A stretch of 64,000 nt of DNA from Alphaproteobacteria bacterium (GTDB lineage Bacteria > Pseudomonadota > Alphaproteobacteria > JAOXRX01): positions 52,651-116,650 of the forward strand of contig JAOXRX010000037.1 in assembly GCA_025800285.1 (NCBI GenBank). The letters run 5' to 3'. The position numbers and the translations under genes are program-made. Below are positions 8,822-18,823 of this stretch, piece by piece. The notes under the pieces were generated by a model. It saw nothing but the letters and a program-made list of their open reading frames with translations. It did not search any database and had not been told where the DNA came from. The first letter of the stretch is position 1. The number at the start of each line of letters is the position of its first letter.

Positions 8822-10639
8822 ATGGAATTTAGAAATATAGCAATCATTGCCCATGTTGATCATGGCAAAACCACTCTTGTTGACAATATGCTGAAACAAA
8901 GTGGAGCTTTTGAAGCTCATAAAGAAATGGCTGACAGAGTTATGGACTCTAACGATTTAGAAAAAGAAAGAGGAATAACAATTTCTGCTAAATGCACTTC
9001 AATTGAGTGGAAAAACTATAGAATCAACATTGTTGACACTCCTGGTCATGCTGACTTTGGAGGAGAAGTAGAAAGAATACTAAGTATGGTTGACGGAGTT
9101 GTATTGCTAGTTGATTCTGCAGAAGGATGCCTACCTCAAACTAAATTTGTTTTAACAAAAGCTTTAGGCTTAGGGCTAAAGCCGATGGTAGTTGTAAACA
9201 AAGTTGATAGAGGAGATGCAAGACCTCACGAAGTTCATGATGAAGTTTTCGATTTATTTGACAAAATTGGAGCGAATGACGAACAACTAGACTTCCCAAC
9301 ACTGTTTGCAGTTGGAAGAGATGGTTGGGCTGTGGAAGATTATGAAAATGATACTCCTAAAGATTTGTCCCCGTTATTTGACTTAATAATAGATCATGTT
9401 CCTGCACCAACTTGTGCTCCTGAAAAACCATTTGCTATGCTAACGACTCTTATAGAATCAGATCCTTATGTTGGCAGAGTTCTAACAGGTAAAGTTTATA
9501 ACGGAAACATAAAAGTTGGCTCTCCTATTAAAGCTATCTCTCTTGATGGTAAGACAATAGAACAAGGCAAGGTTACAAAAATTATGGCTTTCCGTGGAGT
9601 AGAAAGAACATCTGTAAGTGAAGCTATCGCTGGAGACATTATTTCTATAGCTGGATTATCAAAAGCAACTGTAGCAGATACAATTTGTGATTTATCAGTA
9701 GAAAAGGCTTTTGAAGCACACCCAATCGATCCTCCTACACTTTCAATGACATTCTCTGTTAACGATTCTCCGTTCGCAGGTCAAGAAGGAGATAAACTTA
9801 CTTCAAGAGTAATTGCAGCAAGATTATTTAAAGAAGCTGAAAGCAATGTAGCTCTAAAAGTTGAAGAAACTGAAGATAAAAATAGCTTTATTGTATCTGG
9901 TCGTGGAGAACTACAATTAGGAGTGCTAATAGAAACTCTTAGAAGAGAAGGATTCGAACTTTCTATCTCAAGACCTCATGTTGTTTATAAATATGAAGAC
10001 GGTCAAAAACTAGAGCCAATTGAAGAAGTTATTATCGATGTTGAAGATGAGTTCTCTGGTATAGTTATTGAGAAAATGAATAAAAGAAAAGGTATTATGT
10101 CAGACTTAAGACCTTCTGGCGATGGAAAAACAAGAATAACATTCTATACTCCATCAAGAGGTCTAATCGGTTATTTATCTGAGTTTAGAACAGATACAAG
10201 AGGAACTGGTGTTATGAATAGATTATTCCATAACTACGAACCGTTTAAAGGAGAAATTGAGAAATATAGATCAGGAGTTCTAATCTCTATGGGAAACGGA
10301 GTCGCAGCTCCATTTGCTTTATTCAACTTAGAAGCAAGAGGTGTAATGTTCATTGATGCTGGTGTAAAAGTTTATGATGGCATGATTATTGGAGAACATT
10401 CTCAAAGCAATGATTTGGAAGTAAACCCTATTAAAGGTAAGCAACTTACAAACATCCGTGCTTCTGGTAAAGATGAGGCTGTTAAGCTTACAACCCCGAT
10501 TACAATGAGCTTAGAAGAGGCAATTTCATACATTCATGATGATGAATTAGTTGAAGTTACTCCTGAGAGTATGAGACTTAGAAAAAAACATTTAAGTGCT
10601 ATTGACAGGAAAAAAGCTTTAAGAGCTAAAAACAAATAG
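8822..10639 (+). CDS. typA: Translational GTPase TypA/BipA.
   Basis: AHVDHGKTT, DTPGHADF and NKVD motifs. 605 aa, collinear with BipA. Confidence 0.95.
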   Translation: MEFRNIAIIAHVDHGKTTLVDNMLKQSGAFEAHKEMADRVMDSNDLEKERGITISAKCTSIEWKNYRINIVDTPGHADFGGEVERILSMVDGVVLLVDSAEGCLPQTKFVLTKALGLGLKPMVVVNKVDRGDARPHEVHDEVFDLFDKIGANDEQLDFPTLFAVGRDGWAVEDYENDTPKDLSPLFDLIIDHVPAPTCAPEKPFAMLTTLIESDPYVGRVLTGKVYNGNIKVGSPIKAISLDGKTIEQGKVTKIMAFRGVERTSVSEAIAGDIISIAGLSKATVADTICDLSVEKAFEAHPIDPPTLSMTFSVNDSPFAGQEGDKLTSRVIAARLFKEAESNVALKVEETEDKNSFIVSGRGELQLGVLIETLRREGFELSISRPHVVYKYEDGQKLEPIEEVIIDVEDEFSGIVIEKMNKRKGIMSDLRPSGDGKTRITFYTPSRGLIGYLSEFRTDTRGTGVMNRLFHNYEPFKGEIEKYRSGVLISMGNGVAAPFALFNLEARGVMFIDAGVKVYDGMIIGEHSQSNDLEVNPIKGKQLTNIRASGKDEAVKLTTPITMSLEEAISYIHDDELVEVTPESMRLRKKHLSAIDRKKALRAKNK

Positions 10640-10691
10640 ATTATAAAAAAGCTTGCATTTTTTATAAAAATGGAGTAGCTTACTGGAATAA

Positions 10692-10719
10692 ATAAGGAGA
10701 GGTGGCTGAGTGGCTGAAA
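10692..10719 (+). pseudogene. 5' fragment of a tRNA-Ser gene (acceptor 5' strand plus D-loop only). It is a 28-nt direct repeat of the start of the intact tRNA-Ser at 10872-10899.
   Basis: ataaGGAGAGGTGGCTGAGTGGCTGAAA is identical at both sites. The first copy diverges after the D-loop, its D-stem 3' strand does not pair, and no T-arm or acceptor 3' end follows. Confidence 0.6.
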
Positions 10720-10875
10720 ATACGCTTAGTCTTCTCAAGAAGCAAAGCGACTGCAAGAAGACTTAGTCTTTTGCCCGAATACGAGCCTAAAAGGCGAAGT
10801 ACCGAGGGAAATCGTGGAGCTTTTAAGTTAGAGTTAAATAGTTTTTTAAATCTAGCTTCACAATTGGTTATATAA

Positions 10876-10966
10876 GGAGAGGTGGCTGAGTGGCTGAAAG
10901 CGCGCCCCTGCTAAGGGTGTATAGGGCAACCCCCTATCGAGGGTTCGAATCCCTCTCTCTCCGCCA
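10876..10966 (+). tRNA. tRNA-Ser, anticodon GCU (class II with a long variable arm).
   Basis: Manual fold: acceptor GGAGAGG/TCTCTCC, D-arm with GAGTGGCTGAA loop, anticodon loop cuGCUaa, variable arm stem ATAGGG/CCCTAT, T-loop GGTTCGAATCC, discriminator G, then CCA. Confidence 0.85.
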
Positions 10967-10967
10967 T

Positions 10968-11002
10968 AAATAAAAAAGTCGTGCATAGCACGGCTTTTTT
11001 GT
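10968..11002 (+). terminator. Rho-independent terminator after tRNA-Ser.
   Basis: aaaaaaGTCGTGCataGCACGGCttttttg. Confidence 0.6.
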
Positions 11003-11210
11003 TTATAGGAGTGAAGTTAGGATTAGAAACTTTATGAGTAAATCTTTGATTTACGAATGGTTCGACAATTGAACTTCATTTCATAGGGCAGAGCCCGCAT
11101 GAAATGTTAGTGATTGCAACTTTTGAAGAAACCTTAGTTTCTGATAAAAGTAATCCCTCTCTTTACATAATATTTTTCAATTTATATTCGATGAATTAGG
11201 AATAGATAAA

Positions 11211-11501
11211 ATAGCGAAGGAAGTTAATAAACATTTCTCAAATCAAGATATAGACATCATTGTCATAGATCCATGGAGAAATATCTACGAACAAGGATTG
11301 TCAGGAAAAAGCTCTGTCGATCCAAATGCTGATATTATAGCTTTTTTCAAAAGCCGTATTGAAAGTTTGCGAGAAAAAACAAATCCGAATGCTGGAATTG
11401 TGATAGCTCACCATACAAATAAGAACCAAGAATTAGAACACAAAATATTATTAATATATATATTTGTTTTTTCATGGTTGTATTATTACGACCTTTTATA
11501 A
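11211..11501 (+). pseudogene. C-terminal fragment (about 95 aa) of a RecA-fold NTPase of the phage/plasmid primase-helicase (AAA_25/RepA-like) type. It lacks the Walker A N-terminus and is a mobile-element remnant.
   Basis: The frame is open from 11211 with no ATG until a TTG at 11298. It reads ...DIDIIVIDPWRNIY...ADIIAFFKSRIESLREKTNPNAGIVIAHHTNK (Walker-B-like hhhhD, sensor HHTxK). No cognate N-terminal half lies upstream. Confidence 0.45.
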
Positions 11502-11514
11502 TTTAAAATTCTAT

Positions 11515-11895
11515 TCATAACGAAAGTTTGTAATTAATATATATGCTAAAAGACAATATAAAATTGTAATACATAAAGTATATTATAGCCATGCAAAAAT
11601 AATAACCAATACATATGAAGCGACTTTTTAGTTTATTCTTAATATCTAAAACATTATTTTTTGTTTTCCAAAATATAAAGGAATACAAAAAAACAATCAA
11701 AAATATCATAAGTAAAGAAAAATAAACATTAGGGCAATCCCCTTTTATACATACATATTTGTTATAATAATCTTCGTTAAATATAGAAATCATGTAATTT
11801 TTTATGGATATTATACTAATTGTTATAAAACCGAAAAGCCCTAGTATAAAAATTATGCTTGGTATATTATTTGCAATTTTTCTAAATTTATTCAT
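11515..11895 (-). CDS. Small polytopic membrane protein (126 aa, 3-4 TM), immediately downstream of the toxin-like gene. Candidate immunity protein.
   Basis: Hydrophobic segments IIFILGLFGFITISIISI, VYFSLLMIFLIVFLYSFIFW and FICIGYYFCMAIIYFMYYNFILSF. The gap to the upstream gene is 38 nt. Confidence 0.5.
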   Translation of the reverse strand: MNKFRKIANNIPSIIFILGLFGFITISIISIKNYMISIFNEDYYNKYVCIKGDCPNVYFSLLMIFLIVFLYSFIFWKTKNNVLDIKNKLKSRFICIGYYFCMAIIYFMYYNFILSFSIYINYKLSL

Positions 11896-11933
11896 AATAA
11901 TAATTGTTTAACATATAGGCTTATATAATGCAA

Positions 11934-12557
11934 TTATTTTTTATATTGAACTATTAAATCAATAGTTCCTATTTCTGATATTGATCTAAATTCTTCTAAA
12001 AAACTTTTTATTTCAGATGTTAGATCTATGCATCCTATAGAACCAGGATATGTACCTCCATGGATAGAAAACCCACTTCTTCCTTTTGTATCAGTTCCCT
12101 TTTTGGGATCAAGCCATACTCTTCCATCTCCCCATGACTTTTCCCCTCCCGGAAAAGTTCCACCATAAAATATACCTTTAAATTTATCCCAATCACTTCT
12201 ATTATCAGTATACTGAATATCAGGTCTTACTTTATATTCTCCTTCAGGAATTGGACCTTTATTTTTTTTATCAGTATCTTCAGGATGTTGATATCCTGGT
12301 TTACCAGAAACACCATTCCAAGATTTAATAACCTCTTCCGCCCAAATGAGTTTTAAAATTTTGCCATTAAATAATAAATAAGGTTTTCCTTCTCTTTGAT
12401 ATATTTTCTTTAAATGGCATCTACAATTTGGATGTATAGGTAGTTTAGGAGCATCTTGCATTTTATCAAACCTTTTTCCTTGATGTTCTTTGCATTTATC
12501 ACAAATATTGTCTCCTTCGTTTTGATAAACCCAATCATAAATTTCATATTGTTGCAT
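11934..12557 (-). CDS. Candidate polymorphic toxin. The N-terminus carries a zinc-ribbon-like segment with the MuF (phage head-morphogenesis) C-terminal motif HPNCRC. The C-terminal domain resembles an L,D-transpeptidase (YkuD/Tlde1-like).
   Basis: ICDKCKEHQGKRFDKMQDAPKLPIHPNCRCHL, then GPIPEGEY, then FSIHGGTYPGSIGCIDL (LDT catalytic His ... S-x-G-C-I). The start overlaps the upstream gene's stop as TAATG. Confidence 0.6.
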   Translation of the reverse strand: MQQYEIYDWVYQNEGDNICDKCKEHQGKRFDKMQDAPKLPIHPNCRCHLKKIYQREGKPYLLFNGKILKLIWAEEVIKSWNGVSGKPGYQHPEDTDKKNKGPIPEGEYKVRPDIQYTDNRSDWDKFKGIFYGGTFPGGEKSWGDGRVWLDPKKGTDTKGRSGFSIHGGTYPGSIGCIDLTSEIKSFLEEFRSISEIGTIDLIVQYKK

Positions 12558-13129
12558 TATTTTTCTCCTTTTCTTGAGATTGGTAAATTATTATTTACTT
12601 CTGTTAATTTTTTATCTAAATTAATTTTCTTTTTCCCCCAGCAGTATTCAGCATAAACATTGTTAAAAGCTCCATCCTTAATAGCTCTTTTAATTTCTAA
12701 CAAAGGATAAAAAGAGCAAATTTTTTCTAAAAAAGATTTAGTTTTATTACCTAAAATTCCATCCTCTTTTAGAGCTATGATTTCTGTTATTTGATGTTCT
12801 TTTTTATATCCTGTGAGAATATTTAATCCTCTTTGCAAATCTTTTAAAGCTTGTTCTTTTCCTACTCTCTTTGAATGAGTCTGCAGAAATTCATTTAATT
12901 CAGATATTTTCTCTTTAGTTGAAGAGGGTTTTATTACTTTATTCTCTTTTATTGCTACCACAGGAGGTTCTTCTTCAATTACTTGCTTTTTTAGTTCTGG
13001 TTTTTTAGCGACTTTCTTTATAGGCCTTTCTTCAATACCATATTCTCTTTTTAAAAAGGATTTAATCTCTTGCTCAAAAAGGTGTTGTTTATAAGCCTTT
13101 TTAATATTTTCATAATTAAAATTTATCAT
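12557..13129 (-). CDS. Hypothetical protein (190 aa) with a C-terminal peptidoglycan-binding (PG_binding_1-like) segment. First gene of the cassette.
   Basis: ...QITEIIALKEDGILGNKTKSFLEKI matches the DGifGpkT core of PG-binding domains. Lys/Glu-rich N-terminal half. Translationally coupled (TAATG) to the downstream gene. Confidence 0.5.
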   Translation of the reverse strand: MINFNYENIKKAYKQHLFEQEIKSFLKREYGIEERPIKKVAKKPELKKQVIEEEPPVVAIKENKVIKPSSTKEKISELNEFLQTHSKRVGKEQALKDLQRGLNILTGYKKEHQITEIIALKEDGILGNKTKSFLEKICSFYPLLEIKRAIKDGAFNNVYAEYCWGKKKINLDKKLTEVNNNLPISRKGEK

Positions 13130-13145
13130 TATATTTGCTCCAATA

Positions 13146-13172
13146 AAAAAGCCCTGTCTTGCGACAGAGCAT
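13146..13172 (-). terminator. Minus-strand rho-independent terminator just upstream of the toxin cassette. It would insulate the cassette from read-through.
   Basis: Read on the minus strand: GCTCTGTCgcaaGACAGGGC followed by TTTTTTT. Confidence 0.45.
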
Positions 13173-13350
13173 AGGTATTTCTTTTTCTAATTACCTTCTA
13201 TAGGACATTATTCCTAACTTGTCAAGTAAAAAATAATTTATTTGTTTTATTCGCTTTATTGTCTTTTTTGCTGGACTTTCTCTGAAAGTTATGGCTTTGT
13301 TGTGTTGTGCCGCGACTCGAGTCGCTAAAACAACTAAACCAGGAGGATAT

Positions 13351-13440
13351 ATGGAATTAGAGATTAAAAAGAAAGTAGGTTTAAATCTATTTAAAATTCG
13401 CAGAGAAAAGCATTATCAAATTAATTCTGATTACTATTAA
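13351..13440 (+). pseudogene. 29-codon stub resembling the N-terminus of an XRE-family HTH repressor (MELEIKKKVGLNLFKIRREKHYQ...) behind a strong RBS. Probable truncated phage repressor.
   Basis: AGGAGG sits 4 nt before the ATG. The peptide matches the start of HTH_XRE (..G.rLk.lReek...). A GC-rich 14-bp perfect palindrome lies 25 nt upstream. Confidence 0.3.
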
Positions 13441-13592
13441 AGACTGCATACAAAATATAATTTTAGCATATTATTATAATTAACTTTCTCACAATATTAA
13501 AAAAGTTGCAAACATGCTAATTTTATGATATATTAACAGTGCACAGAACAAAGATTGTTTTATAATTAAACAAAATTAAGGAGATAAAAAAT

Positions 13593-14522
13593 ATGTTAAA
13601 GATGAGCGAAAACAAAAAAATAGATACTACTTTAACAACTGTTTTATTAGCTGGGGTTTTTGCAGTAGGAAAGAAACATAAAGGCTTTATTCCCGAAGCA
13701 GAAATGAATTTATTAAAAGACTCTTTAGAAAGAGTTAAAAGTGCTAGCATTTTACATAGAGGTGTATCCCTTTTAGGAACTAAAACACCAGGATTTGCTA
13801 TAAAAATTCTAGATACTTTTTCTCATGGATTAGCATATCAGTATGCAGAAAGAAATAGAATATTTCGTGAACAATTCTCTCAAATGCACAGCATTTATGG
13901 CTCAGACTTATCTATAGTAAATTTAAGGGCTGGTCTTGATTTTATACCGGATTTATATGCTTATAATAACAATTTAGAAACTATAAATATTGATAGCGAG
14001 GAAATTTTAAGTCAAAGAAAATGGTTATTGCAAGAGAAAAGACCTGAGCTATTCTATAACTCTAAAGAAGTTCCTTTGAACTTATCATTGGAGAATGATA
14101 TTTCTAAAATACAAAACTTTTTAAAAGATAAACCAACTTTAGTTATGGCTAAAGGATTGTTTCCATATTTAGAACATGATAAAGTTAAGCTTATTTTACA
14201 AGAAATAGCAAAATCACCTAAACCATCAATGCTTACATGCTCTTTTTTAAATTCTTTAAATGGAAATACAAAAACTAAAAAAGAGGAATCTACTAAACAA
14301 AGCATGAATTATAAATCAGCTTGGAGCCCTAAAGATTTTACAGCATTAGCAACAAGCTTAGGCATGCAGGTTCAATTTGCACTAAAAGCCTCAACTTGGA
14401 TGAGTGAAGCTATAATAAAATCTGGAAAAATAAACCCTCAGCAATTAGATGAAACTTGGGATATAGAAAACATGGCGACAATATCTAATGCAAGACATTC
14501 ATATATACCTTCAATTAGTTAA
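13593..14522 (+). CDS. Putative class I SAM-dependent O-methyltransferase (LCM/Ppm-like family).
   Basis: N-terminal TTVLLAGVFAV...FIPEAEMNLL, the block IVNLRAGLDFIPD (cf. vvNLGaGlDtR) and TLVMAKGLFPYLEHDKVKLILQEIA (cf. iaEGllmYL). RBS AAGGAG at 13580. Confidence 0.4.
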   Translation: MLKMSENKKIDTTLTTVLLAGVFAVGKKHKGFIPEAEMNLLKDSLERVKSASILHRGVSLLGTKTPGFAIKILDTFSHGLAYQYAERNRIFREQFSQMHSIYGSDLSIVNLRAGLDFIPDLYAYNNNLETINIDSEEILSQRKWLLQEKRPELFYNSKEVPLNLSLENDISKIQNFLKDKPTLVMAKGLFPYLEHDKVKLILQEIAKSPKPSMLTCSFLNSLNGNTKTKKEESTKQSMNYKSAWSPKDFTALATSLGMQVQFALKASTWMSEAIIKSGKINPQQLDETWDIENMATISNARHSYIPSIS

Positions 14523-14553
14523 TTCAAAACCTTATACAAAAAAAATCTAAGTA

Positions 14554-15450
14554 CTAATGTGTTCTACCAGCTAGATATTGAGCTAGCTCTATTAACAAAC
14601 TTACATCTTTGTTAAATATCTTTAACTCATCACAAGCTTCCTGAGTTAATTTATCAACTGCTATTTGTGCTTCTTCCAGCCCATACATAGAAATAAATGT
14701 TGTTTTCTTATTAGCCTCATCTCTTCGTAATGGCTTACCTACTAATTTTTCATCACCAATAACATCTAATATATCATCCGTTATTTGAAAAACAATGCCA
14801 AATTTTGTTGCATAATTATACAAAGCTTTTCGCTCCTCTTTAGAAGCCTTTCCCAATATAGCTCCAGCCAAACAAGAGAATATAAACATTTTACCTGTTT
14901 TAAGAAACTCCATTCTTTTCATTGTCTCAAAGGACAAAGATCTTTTTTCAGATAGTAAGTCTAGTATTTGACCAGCAACCATCCCCTTTGCTCCAATTGT
15001 TTTTGAGAGTTCTAAAGCAATTTCGCTTCTTAATTCAGCATCCGATATATTGCTTGGATTAGAAATAATCTCATAAGCTAAGGGTATTAAAGCATCACCA
15101 GTAAGTATAGCAGTTGCCTCATCATATCTTATATGGTTTGCGGGCTGTCCTCTTCTAGTATCGGCATCGTCCATAGAAGGAAGGTCATCATGAATAAGAG
15201 AATAAGCATGCACGAACTCTATTGCACTAGCCACTTTTAAAGCCTCTTTTCTAGAAACTCCAAATAGCTTTGATGTTTCTACTACTAAAAATGCTCTAAT
15301 TCTTTTAGCCTTTGCCATAGAAGAATATCTCATGGATTCATATAGGAAACTCTCTTCTTCCGTTCCATTTGGGATTAAAGCCAGCATTTCAGCCTCAATA
15401 TCTTTAACTACTCTTTTTATTTCTGATGATAAAGCTTTGCTGATATTCAT
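14554..15450 (-). CDS. ispA: (2E,6E)-farnesyl-diphosphate synthase / polyprenyl synthetase. Start placed at the internal Met (MNISKALS); the ORF track extends to 15507.
   Basis: First DDxxD motif IHDDLPSMDDADTRRG and second motif FQITDDILD. Immediately downstream of xseB, as in the xseB-ispA operon. Confidence 0.88.
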   Translation of the reverse strand: MNISKALSSEIKRVVKDIEAEMLALIPNGTEEESFLYESMRYSSMAKAKRIRAFLVVETSKLFGVSRKEALKVASAIEFVHAYSLIHDDLPSMDDADTRRGQPANHIRYDEATAILTGDALIPLAYEIISNPSNISDAELRSEIALELSKTIGAKGMVAGQILDLLSEKRSLSFETMKRMEFLKTGKMFIFSCLAGAILGKASKEERKALYNYATKFGIVFQITDDILDVIGDEKLVGKPLRRDEANKKTTFISMYGLEEAQIAVDKLTQEACDELKIFNKDVSLLIELAQYLAGRTH

Positions 15451-15451
15451 G

Positions 15452-15667
15452 TTACATATCCTCTTCTTTTGATACTTCTCCGTTACTACTAACGGCAATT
15501 TTTTCAAGTTTTGTTTTTGCTTCTTTTAATCTAGTTTCACAGATTGATGCGAGCTTAACACCTTTTTCATAATTAGCCAAAGCATCTTCAAGTTTACCTT
15601 GTCCGCTTTCCATAGATTTAACAATTAGTTCTAGCTCTTTTAAAGCATCTTCAAAATTAGTATCCAT
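15452..15667 (-). CDS. xseB: Exodeoxyribonuclease VII small subunit.
   Basis: 71 aa (FEDALKELELIVKSMESGQGKLEDALANYEKGVKLASICETRL), typical of XseB, located upstream of ispA. Confidence 0.85.
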   Translation of the reverse strand: MDTNFEDALKELELIVKSMESGQGKLEDALANYEKGVKLASICETRLKEAKTKLEKIAVSSNGEVSKEEDM

Positions 15668-15677
15668 ATCTTTCTCC

Positions 15678-16628
15678 TTATTTAAAAACCCCTATCACAC
15701 TCATCATATCTTCTGGAATCTCACTTATAAAGTGCATCTCCTCTTTTGTACTAGGATGAATAAAAGCTATTTCTTTTGCATGCAAAGCTTGTCTATCAAA
15801 GCATCTCAATATCGCCTTTTGTTCATCTGTAAATTTATATTTATTGATTTTGCTTCTACCATAAACTTGATCTCCTAAAAGAGGACAACCTATATGAGTC
15901 ATATGAACTCTTATTTGATGAGTCCTTCCTGTTTCAAGTTTACATTCAACTAAACAAAGCTTTCTCTCAAATGTTTTAAGAGTCTTATAATTTGTGATTG
16001 CCTCTTTACCAGCATCTTCACCCAGAACAGACATTTTTTTACGATTCGTTTTACTTCTTCCAATGTTAGTTAGGATTGTTCCTGATGATGGAGATGGATT
16101 TCCCCAAACAATAGCATTATAAACTCTAGAAAGCTTTCTCTTTTCTAACTGCTTTGATAAATGTTTATGTGCTTTATCGTTTTTCGCAACGATCATCAAG
16201 CCACTTGTATCTTTATCTAAACGATGAACAATTCCCGGTCTTTGTACTCCACCTATGCCAGAAAGGCTATCTTTACAATGGAACAGTATAGCATTTACTA
16301 GAGTCCCATCATAATTACCAACAGCAGGATGCACAACCATACCTACTTCTTTATTGATAACTAGAACATCATCATCTTCATAAACGATGTTTATAGGTAT
16401 ATCTTGTGGTTCTGGGATTGCCTCTTTAACTTCTGGAATTTCAACGAAAAACACATCTCCTTTTTTAACTTTTGTTGCTGGAGATATTTTTTCATAATTT
16501 TTACTTTTTACATAATCATTCTCTATGTAATTCTTTAATTGGTTTCTGGATATTTCTGGCAGAGATTTCGCCAAACAGAAATCCAATCTTTTTTTATTTA
16601 ACTCTTCTGATATTTGAACTTTTAACAT
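15678..16628 (-). CDS. rluD: 23S rRNA pseudouridine synthase RluD (RluA family with an S4 domain).
   Basis: S4-like N-terminus, the HRLDKDTSGLMIVAKN catalytic-Asp motif and GRTHQIRVH. The ORF track starts 15 nt earlier, at 16643. Confidence 0.88.
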   Translation of the reverse strand: MLKVQISEELNKKRLDFCLAKSLPEISRNQLKNYIENDYVKSKNYEKISPATKVKKGDVFFVEIPEVKEAIPEPQDIPINIVYEDDDVLVINKEVGMVVHPAVGNYDGTLVNAILFHCKDSLSGIGGVQRPGIVHRLDKDTSGLMIVAKNDKAHKHLSKQLEKRKLSRVYNAIVWGNPSPSSGTILTNIGRSKTNRKKMSVLGEDAGKEAITNYKTLKTFERKLCLVECKLETGRTHQIRVHMTHIGCPLLGDQVYGRSKINKYKFTDEQKAILRCFDRQALHAKEIAFIHPSTKEEMHFISEIPEDMMSVIGVFK

Positions 16629-16678
16629 ACAGCTTTTATACAATAGATTTTTACAAAAGACAAATTATTTCTTTTTGA

Positions 16679-18823
<2,145 letters not shown>

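Follow-up and report, generated by a model that had tools for sequence, protein, structure and literature searches.

The interval between typA and ispA in the genome of an uncultured alphaproteobacterium is very probably a stack of decayed integrative elements that were anchored at a tRNA-Ser(GCU) gene and have become immobile. It covers 3,914 nt (positions 10,640 to 14,553) of a 64,000-nt stretch of contig JAOXRX010000037.1, which was analysed as a whole and is called the window hereafter; the host genome has a low GC content (31.5%) and was obtained as a metagenome-assembled genome (MAG). Four things are shown directly: the anatomy of the tRNA gene and its displaced end copies, the fragment status of an ATPase gene, the differences between two strains at this locus, which are the decisive evidence, and the architecture found around an intact relative of the fragmented gene. 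A previous sequence-only reading of the same DNA had described the stretch as the outcome of repeated integration and decay at a tRNA hotspot. Our results support this description, since several tRNA-end copies are present (one 5' fragment and a 3' repeat, to which a sister strain adds another, degenerate 3' copy), the gene content varies in that strain, and the predicted NTPase gene is only a fragment.

The integration target is an intact tRNA-Ser(GCU) gene on the forward strand (10876-10966), recognized by ARAGORN and by Rfam (RF00005, 54.9 bits) and 100% identical in the sister strain, which confirms the anchor point proposed initially. The predicted fragment of the tRNA 5' end also proved to be genuine. 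It lies on the same strand, 180 nt upstream of the tRNA (10689-10719), and matches 10869-10899 at 30 of 31 positions, including 28 nt that are exact (E 1.3e-10). This displaced copy comprises tRNA nucleotides 1-24 and 7 nt of upstream sequence; identity ends abruptly past nucleotide 24, and a weaker similarity with indels reaches ∼35 nt further upstream of the fragment. It is kept in the sister strain with one more mismatch, and the 149-nt spacer separating it from the tRNA (10720-10868) is 98% identical in that strain and gives a blastn match to a contig from a related species (L048, presented below). Just 3' of the tRNA, a bidirectional terminator hairpin lies between an A-run and a T-run at 10978-10999 (terminator-like site 10992-10980). 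Further downstream, the forward strand carries a truncated direct repeat of the tRNA 3' end, AATCCCTCTCT (11152-11162), which is identical to tRNA positions 10948-10958 and starts in the T-loop.

Taken alone, AATCCCTCTCT is within chance in the 64-kb window (E 1.8; with one mismatch allowed, the observed count is attained in 8 of 100 shuffles). The att-like scar claimed from the sequence is validated by the sister strain, in which the corresponding site bears the tRNA 3' repeat at its full length of 21 nt, AATCCCTCTCTCTCCGCCATA. This strain is represented by a 10,042-nt contig (L037; JGI 3300045489, also at NCBI with N4A43_ tags) that was found by a TypA protein search (99% identical TypA). 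Since its flanks are 98.5% and 98.3% identical to those of the window and its gene order from LysR to LigA is the same, we consider it as a conspecific sister strain. Its typA-ispA interval measures 1,841 nt versus 3,914 nt in the window, and blastn resolves the comparison into four blocks: L037 1-5507 with window 5657-11162 (98.5%), 5686-5716 with 11155-11185 (96.8%), 5771-6370 with 13406-14023 (88.9%) and 6364-10042 with 14091-17770 (98.2%). The comparison of the interval with a relative, as suggested by the initial reading, thus revealed a different gene content, with window segment 11186-13405 absent from L037 and an extra 186-nt unit present there.

The 21-nt repeat of L037 (5497-5517) is followed by its own terminator hairpin, as fits a displaced original tRNA 3' end. 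After this repeat come 178 nt without window counterpart. They include a T-arm piece (GAGGGTTCGAA, 5573-5583), and their last nucleotides form a degenerate 3' copy, CCCCCTCTCT (∼5684-5693). The window sequence equals that of L037 minus 186 nt bounded by two 8-nt CCCTCTCT cores. The 11-nt scar of the window is therefore a hybrid, left by the removal of these 186 nt, of two repeat copies which L037 still has as distinct sequences. The second unit of L037 also contains, after the terminator, the stretch GGCATAGGGGTTTGAACCC (5540-5575), whose other strand looks like the terminal 3' part of another tRNA, GGGTTCAAACCCCTATGCCA, and which may have been left by an additional element or target.

Could a local tandem duplication, or ectopic recombination among tRNA-Ser paralogues, have produced the tRNA-end copies without integrase-mediated insertion, with the toxin cassette and the ATPase fragment as unrelated insertions? 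We regard this as quite improbable. Such a scenario would account for the ∼40 nt of diverged upstream sequence included in the 5' copy, for the weak resemblance between the sequence upstream of the tRNA and that following the terminator (period of ∼180 nt; 9 of 500 shuffles), and for the presence of a tRNA-Ser(GGA) gene beside typA in related species, which indicates that the region rearranges around tRNA-Ser genes. However, identity to the tRNA falls at once from 28/28 to none, with no even decay along its length. In three species, the 3' copy begins at one and the same point of the T-loop, runs through CCA and is followed by a terminator, as is typical of attachment sites. Moreover, the repeat directly adjoins the fragment of a mobile-element replication gene, and both an integrase and a tRNA are linked to the intact relative of this fragment.

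This fragment is a pseudogene on the forward strand (11154-11423) corresponding to an internal part, the end of the AAA_25 domain, of a primase/helicase-type replication protein, as identified with Pfam, PHROG and HMMER. It is a single reading frame with 89 homologous codons and a stop codon directly upstream (11151-11153). It aligns with positions 139-195 of the 195 of Pfam AAA_25 (E 0.0097) and with positions 216-292 of the 363 of PHROG 13004 (E 4e-16). A word-index protein search with the 91-aa fragment returned nothing and a full HMMER search was required, which yielded 97 matches aligned at internal positions of proteins of mostly 500-860 aa. Ten of these homologues bear AAA_25, several of them together with Toprim or with Prim-Pol plus PriCT_2. 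Of a complete primase domain plus AAA_25, only AAA_25 positions ∼139-195 are left here, and tblastn with eleven homologues as queries located no additional part of this gene within the window. The NTPase-like segment had been described as a C-terminal fragment: its fragment status stands (∼89 codons compared with 500-860 aa), while its position has to be corrected, as it matches the end of the ATPase domain and not the C-terminus of the protein.

The search for an intact relative with an adjacent integrase, also advised by the sequence-only reading, was successful. The closest one (P0121; 553 aa, 46% identity over 89 residues) is encoded on a contig (L042) whose first bases are the final 30 nt of a tRNA gene (...GGTTCGAATCCCACCCCATCCGCCA) and which carries a tyrosine integrase gene ∼290 nt further on. 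The order on one strand is the tRNA 3' end, the integrase (356 aa, PF00589, E 4e-33), a 169-aa open reading frame (ORF), a 71-aa ORF and the AAA_25 protein, the latter having the same orientation relative to the tRNA as the fragment in the window. Such a layout and orientation are those expected for an ancestor of the window remnant, from which ∼2.8 kb would be missing between the tRNA and the fragment. A second relative (P0126) serves as replication protein in a complete prophage, which has genes for terminase, portal and capsid. With relatives that are integrase-linked in one case and prophage-borne in the other, the fragment is that of a mobile-element replication gene, the element being a satellite, a prophage or another island. 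A viral-contig search with P0121 gave nothing. Compared with P4-like satellites or satellites resembling phage-inducible chromosomal islands, such as that of L042, the window shares an ATPase gene segment downstream of a tRNA on the same strand; it differs from them in lacking the integrase, the two small genes, and both the N-terminal half and the C-terminal part of the ATPase.

The same fragment informs on the direction of the change between the two strains. The segment 11186-13405 is replaced in L037 by 54 unrelated nt (blastn and alignment), so that this strain misses the rest of the ATPase fragment, a cassette of three ORFs and the start of a 49-codon ORF. Homology to the ATPase is unbroken across 11185/11186, and L037 retains only its first 31 nt. 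Since this homology is continuous across the left junction, L037 has lost the segment and the window strain did not gain it. A recent acquisition of 11186-13405 by the window strain, into an already decayed locus, would agree with its presence in one strain and absence in the other, and also with the 54 nt of unrelated filler found in L037 in place of a clean deletion joint. Yet we consider it unlikely, as the inserted DNA would have needed to carry precisely the remainder of a pseudogene spanning 11154-11423, no flanking repeats or transposase are found, and the codon usage of the segment matches the host.

On these grounds, we infer the following course of events for the stack of elements at tRNA-Ser(GCU). 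Each integration would have crossed over in the T-loop, swapping the tRNA 3' end for an element-borne copy and pushing the previous 3' end downstream; one earlier event would have displaced a tRNA 5' end instead. At least one of the elements would have been of the "integrase, small regulators, primase/helicase" type known from phage satellites and small prophage-like islands. Subsequent deletions would have taken away the distal attachment site, the integrase and the larger part of the replication gene, and mobility with them, leaving intact the regenerated tRNA and its terminator, a three-gene cassette of Tlde1 toxin/immunity type and a methyltransferase gene. Decay is still ongoing and strain-specific: L037 has deleted the cassette and frameshifted the methyltransferase gene, and the window strain has lost the 186-nt unit via recombination between the two CCCTCTCT cores.

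This organization corresponds in many respects to genomic islands at tRNA genes. What defines tDNA islands is a regenerated target accompanied by a displaced fragment (PMC4383910), and the Islander survey contains 3,760 islands with 3' fragments compared with 159 with 5' fragments, sites in the T-stem being the commonest class (PMC4383910). Tandem arrays and decayed remnants flanked by attachment sites are also well described (PMC5704250). The window locus adjoins an intact tRNA gene, carries displaced fragments in direct orientation and is variably present in a close relative; it has neither an integrase gene nor a foreign composition or codon usage, as expected of an old remnant. With the known islands (PMC4383910) and with the accretion of cis-mobilizable elements (CIMEs; PMC5704250), it shares the regenerated tRNA and directly oriented displaced 3' and 5' fragments, a crossover in the T-loop/T-stem, serial attachment-site copies, strain-variable content, and the loss of integration genes with retention of att copies. 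It departs from them by the lack of an integrase or a recognizable distal att site, by the very small size of the remnants (149, ∼186 and 186 nt between att copies), and by the conservation of one remnant across species with compensatory changes.

The cassette whose presence had been announced consists of three minus-strand ORFs of 190, 207 and 126 aa, and its central member has a Tlde1 domain above the Pfam cutoff. This 207-aa toxin candidate (11934-12557) ends with an L,D-transpeptidase-like domain (PF10908, 32.7 bits for a cutoff of 30.1). Among its 154 homologues, nearly all bear PF10908, and an alignment of 16 shows invariant His166, Gly167, Gly168, Ser173, Gly175 and Cys176, the latter followed by IDLT. 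A PDB search by sequence retrieved nothing meaningful and a fold search was required. The AlphaFold model (predicted local distance difference test, pLDDT, 84.3) has Salmonella Tlde1a as best PDB match (7UO3, E 2.7e-8, template-modelling scores 0.53/0.61), and the next-best fold matches after the Tlde1a structures are YkuD-type L,D-transpeptidases. Given the conserved catalytic His and Cys and the Tlde1a fold of the model, the toxin looks functional. No signal peptide is apparent in its N-terminal sequence, and no gene of a type VI secretion system (VgrG, Hcp, PAAR or adaptor) was found in the interval.

The first 50 residues of the toxin hold a CxxC...PxHPNCRC motif, which is the end of the MuF/SPP1 gp7 head-protein domain. 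The match to PF04233 (MuF) covers positions 64-111 of 112 and stays below threshold (17.2 bits for a cutoff of 29.6); the motif also matches PHROG head-morphogenesis families and a Clostridium phage head protein. As the same short architecture recurs in the homologues P0002, P0003, P0004, P0103, P0112 and P0113, it is a family trait and not a truncation. At the P0003 locus (L034, 7641-9105), a small upstream ORF of 109 aa ends with ...EEEIDVRVLMPWGDI and resembles residues ∼43-58 of the longer MuF-Tlde1 protein P0004. Based on this resemblance, the N-terminal region may have been split off as a separate ORF in some toxin relatives.

Immediately upstream, the 190-aa ORF (12557-13129, minus strand) is preceded by a GGAG ribosome-binding site and is translationally coupled to the toxin gene, its stop codon overlapping the toxin start (ATGA). 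It has no Pfam, PHROG or PDB match, NCBIfam gives only a sub-threshold hit (E 0.0035, 16.7 bits for a cutoff of 250), and its single-sequence model is poor (pLDDT 44.6). A relationship with PG_binding-containing Tlde1 proteins was considered and rejected, the comparison being insignificant; no similarity to the small upstream ORF of the P0003 locus was detected either. Downstream of the toxin, the 126-aa ORF (11515-11895, minus strand) displays three hydrophobic stretches according to hydropathy and is a candidate immunity protein. Its GC content is 20.5%, it is devoid of a Shine-Dalgarno sequence, and it has no family match in Pfam, NCBIfam or PHROG. The neighbours of toxin homologues show no detectable similarity to the 190-aa or the 126-aa ORF. 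Altogether, we infer that the cassette encodes a predicted peptidoglycan-targeting toxin and a membrane immunity protein. Upstream of the 190-aa ORF, at a distance of 20 nt, a strong predicted terminator-like hairpin (13151-13170, minus strand) is probably the terminator of a lost minus-strand gene.

Two known types of toxins resemble the 207-aa protein. Like Tlde1/Tldi1 pairs associated with type VI secretion (Salmonella Tlde1a), the cassette combines a Tlde1 domain above the Pfam cutoff, the conserved L,D-transpeptidase His and Cys, a predicted fold nearest to the Tlde1a crystal structures, and a small ORF immediately downstream. The His...Cys motif has been described for Tlde1a (PMC9638812). 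By motif position, the equivalent of Tlde1a His129 is Ile174 in the window toxin (S-I-G-C versus (S/T)-H-G-C). In addition, Tlde1a is a stand-alone effector, whereas the window protein adds an N-terminal MuF-type Cys motif, and in contrast to Tldi1-type immunity proteins, the downstream ORF is a predicted three-helix membrane protein similar to nothing. With the MuF polymorphic toxins of temperate phages (PMC5576092), the protein shares the C-terminal motif of the gp7 domain (C..C...PxHPNCRC) ahead of a toxin domain and a small ORF after the toxin. However, it has only the last ∼45 of the 112 MuF positions, it is 207 aa long and not several hundred, and it is located outside a head-morphogenesis module, with no phage structural genes nearby.

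The cassette had been proposed to be the selected cargo that survived. The one available comparison does not support such a selection, because the sister strain has lost the cassette.

Next to the cassette, the presence of a methyltransferase is corroborated. The accessory gene at 13593-14522 on the forward strand, which may be cargo of the element or an old chromosomal gene, encodes a 309-aa S-adenosylmethionine-dependent enzyme of LCM/TcmP type (PF04072, E 2.5e-8, 34.4 bits for a threshold of 22.3; TIGR00027 below cutoff), and no match to this LCM protein was found in phage genomes. Its counterpart in L037 (5940-6795) is split into two frames by a 74-nt deletion between short repeats (window 14024-14097), and NCBI annotates there only a 143-aa stub. 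Since the dS between strains equals that of the flanks (0.067 versus 0.065), the gene was in the common ancestor. Its dN/dS is raised (0.36 versus 0.06 for the flanks, Fisher p 5e-5), as expected with one copy drifting. The ∼80 nt upstream of the gene differ between the two strains. As a separate observation, dS is uneven along 6241-17770 when the window is compared with L037, ranging from 0.024-0.028 for lysR, rluD and xseB to 0.10-0.13 for ispA and the DEAD-box helicase gene, which suggests inter-strain recombination.

The supposed truncated XRE repressor stub finds no support. The 49-codon ORF concerned (13291-13440, forward strand) has no profile match in Pfam, NCBIfam or PHROG, and several readings of this region gave no HTH_3 or similar match even at E <= 10; the right junction of the L037 deletion falls inside it (13405/13406).

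Outside the interval, the window conforms to the housekeeping content described previously, with a LysR regulator, a DEAD-box helicase and TypA on the left flank and IspA, XseB, RluD and LigA on the right. The DEAD-box helicase (7494-8750) ends with a C-terminal tail of ∼60 residues that is very rich in Lys and Asn (KKKRKKKKKNNSLYKKNKKGNPGKDKK...). The MAG proteins at NCBI comprise TypA (MCV6599090.1), the toxin (MCV6599091.1), the 190-aa ORF (MCV6599092.1, OIF36_01230) and the methyltransferase (MCV6599093.1), all four on one 247,803-nt contig; the 126-aa ORF is called in a Logan contig and has no NCBI accession listed in a cluster look-up. Because the source is a MAG, one could suspect the interval to be a chimera of reads from different organisms, created during assembly or binning, all the more so as short-read contigs of the same sample break at 10960, 11103 and 13145. 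This is highly improbable. Independent Logan contigs from SRR15960039 match the window at 100% identity over 6248-10960 (L001) and 11103-13145 (L002), thereby covering the left junction and the cassette. Moreover, L037, which originates from another sample, is contiguous from typA to 11185 and from 13406 to ligA, and the codon usage of the island ORFs is that of the host.

Several observations weigh against a stack of decayed tRNA-anchored elements. No integrase remnant was detected by Pfam on four ORFs and two fragments, nor by tblastn with the L042 integrase on the window interval and L037; this absence fits a decayed element and not an active one. Beyond 11162, no distal att copy is found, the best 21-mer match (14/21) being within the shuffle range, and no further tRNA-like pieces rise above chance; the right boundary of the element is consequently undefined. 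The GC3 (GC content at third codon positions) of the four island ORFs is 0.13-0.22 compared with 0.203 ± 0.029 elsewhere, and their codon usage falls inside the range of the other 55 ORFs of the window. The compositional check advised at first therefore gave a divided answer: bulk GC is lower in the interval (28.1% versus 31.5% for the window), and neither GC3 nor codon usage is foreign. Host-like codon usage would be accounted for either by old, host-adapted DNA or by a donor with a similar genome. The cassette may have belonged to another element than the ATPase: it lies on the strand opposite to the ATPase fragment, and the two toxin relatives whose loci were inspected (P0003 and P0113) are among chromosomal and not phage genes, each with small flanking ORFs.

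The comparative side also has its share of adverse points. A truly empty typA-tRNA-ispA site was not encountered: a TypA scan of species-representative genomes peaked at 69% with no typA-ispA synteny, and a scan of JGI metagenomes produced no close relative with synteny, only a 1.3-kb read at 94%. Synteny is lost beyond the species, and typA-ispA adjacency was not found outside it; the more distant relatives L040 (89%), L041 (82%) and L039 (81%) have other neighbours, so that the conspecific L037 is the only informative sequence for comparing the locus. Finally, positions 10967-11162, which follow the tRNA directly, show 0 differences out of 196 from L037, when 5-13 would be expected from the dS of neighbouring genes (0.024-0.129), and the compensatory changes that this region displays relative to the L048 contig fit a functional module better than a scar.

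The region in question is a palindromic module that extends from the tRNA terminator to the 3' repeat (11005-11151), with a two-hairpin core at 11059-11153. The core opens with GGTTCGA, the left half of the T-loop sequence, and ends before AATCC; judging from these borders, it looks like an insertion of ∼88 nt within the T-loop of a tRNA 3' fragment that has been displaced. A similar arrangement is found in the related species of contig L048 (TypA 93% identical at the amino acid level, typA 82.6% at the nucleotide level), 3' of a tRNA-Ser(GGA) gene located upstream of typA. In this contig (1-183, minus strand), the tRNA is followed in turn by a terminator hairpin, a degenerate copy of its own 3' end in inverted orientation, a stretch of ∼100 nt and a 19-nt repeat; the ∼100-nt stretch is 78.6% identical to window 11059-11157, and the repeat is a perfect copy of the 3' end of its own tRNA. 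L041 (TypA 82%; 585-751, minus strand) has the same outer layout with a different middle. In each of these species, including that of the window, the 19-nt repeat reproduces the cognate tRNA exactly, starts with AATCC in the T-loop and runs through CCA. Hairpins following the tRNA, with differing stem sequences, are present in L048, L041 and the second unit of L037.

Between the window and L048, 46 pairs are predicted, among which 8 are compensatory (both sides changed) and none is broken, and slid controls give 0. This evidence comes from two informative sequences, from which the structure itself was derived. Both strands fold equally well, so that an RNA and a DNA palindrome are not distinguished, and the module belongs to no Rfam family. 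A covariance model run over the 64-kb window recovers only the module and, in the spacer beside the 5' tRNA fragment, a partial copy of its first hairpin (10727-10765, E 3e-4). Two pattern scans of viral contigs found none. A transfer-messenger RNA or an extra tRNA was rejected as explanation (only spurious ARAGORN calls at lowered thresholds, and no such RNA from Rfam), as was a high-copy miniature inverted-repeat transposable element or repetitive extragenic palindrome in the window, the covariance model finding one copy and one partial in 64 kb.

The ∼11005-11162 region may therefore be a functional unit and not debris, either a CIME-like miniature element that depends on an integrase or a structured RNA linked to tRNA-Ser. 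We give this possibility, which is compatible with the accretion and decay of elements at tRNA-Ser(GCU), a limited but real chance. The perfect conservation between strains, the recurrence of the module beside another isoacceptor with a repeat of that tRNA, the compensated pairing, the common outer layout of L041 and the partial hairpin copy all speak for it; the small number of informative sequences, the equivalent folding of the two strands, the lack of an Rfam family and the lack of further copies in the window and in viral contigs speak against it. Three readings of the module are considered: a conserved att-proximal arm of this element family, a miniature CIME-like passenger bounded by att sites (PMC5704250), or a tRNA-linked structured RNA. 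Only tentatively, and with somewhat less assurance still, would we see in it a previously undescribed structure-constrained miniature element or tRNA-linked RNA, present at GCU and GGA tRNA-Ser genes in at least two species of an uncultured low-GC alphaproteobacterial clade, a third species having the outer layout with another middle. If mobile, the module would be a non-coding passenger using the integrases of the full-length elements that decayed here. It is the only part of the locus with possible novelty.

The neighbourhood of typA offers a side observation. In L048 (184-273) and L041 (752-841), a divergent tRNA-Ser(GGA) gene lies upstream of typA, and in the species of the window the DEAD-box helicase gene is upstream and tRNA-Ser(GCU) downstream; the order around typA has been reshuffled beside tRNA-Ser genes.

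To conclude, the typA-ispA interval fits a late stage of decay of a known type of tDNA island and leaves the current understanding of these islands unchanged. For annotation purposes, this work draws attention to a pseudogene and a 126-aa ORF that are both unannotated, and to a methyltransferase gene that is a pseudogene in L037. It also documents, for an uncultured alphaproteobacterium, a short toxin architecture of the "MuF-motif plus Tlde1" kind. Besides, the locus is a small and clean illustration of debris accumulating at tRNA integration hotspots and of its fast turnover, as two strains that are ∼1.6% apart have deleted different parts of it and the cassette persists in only one of them.

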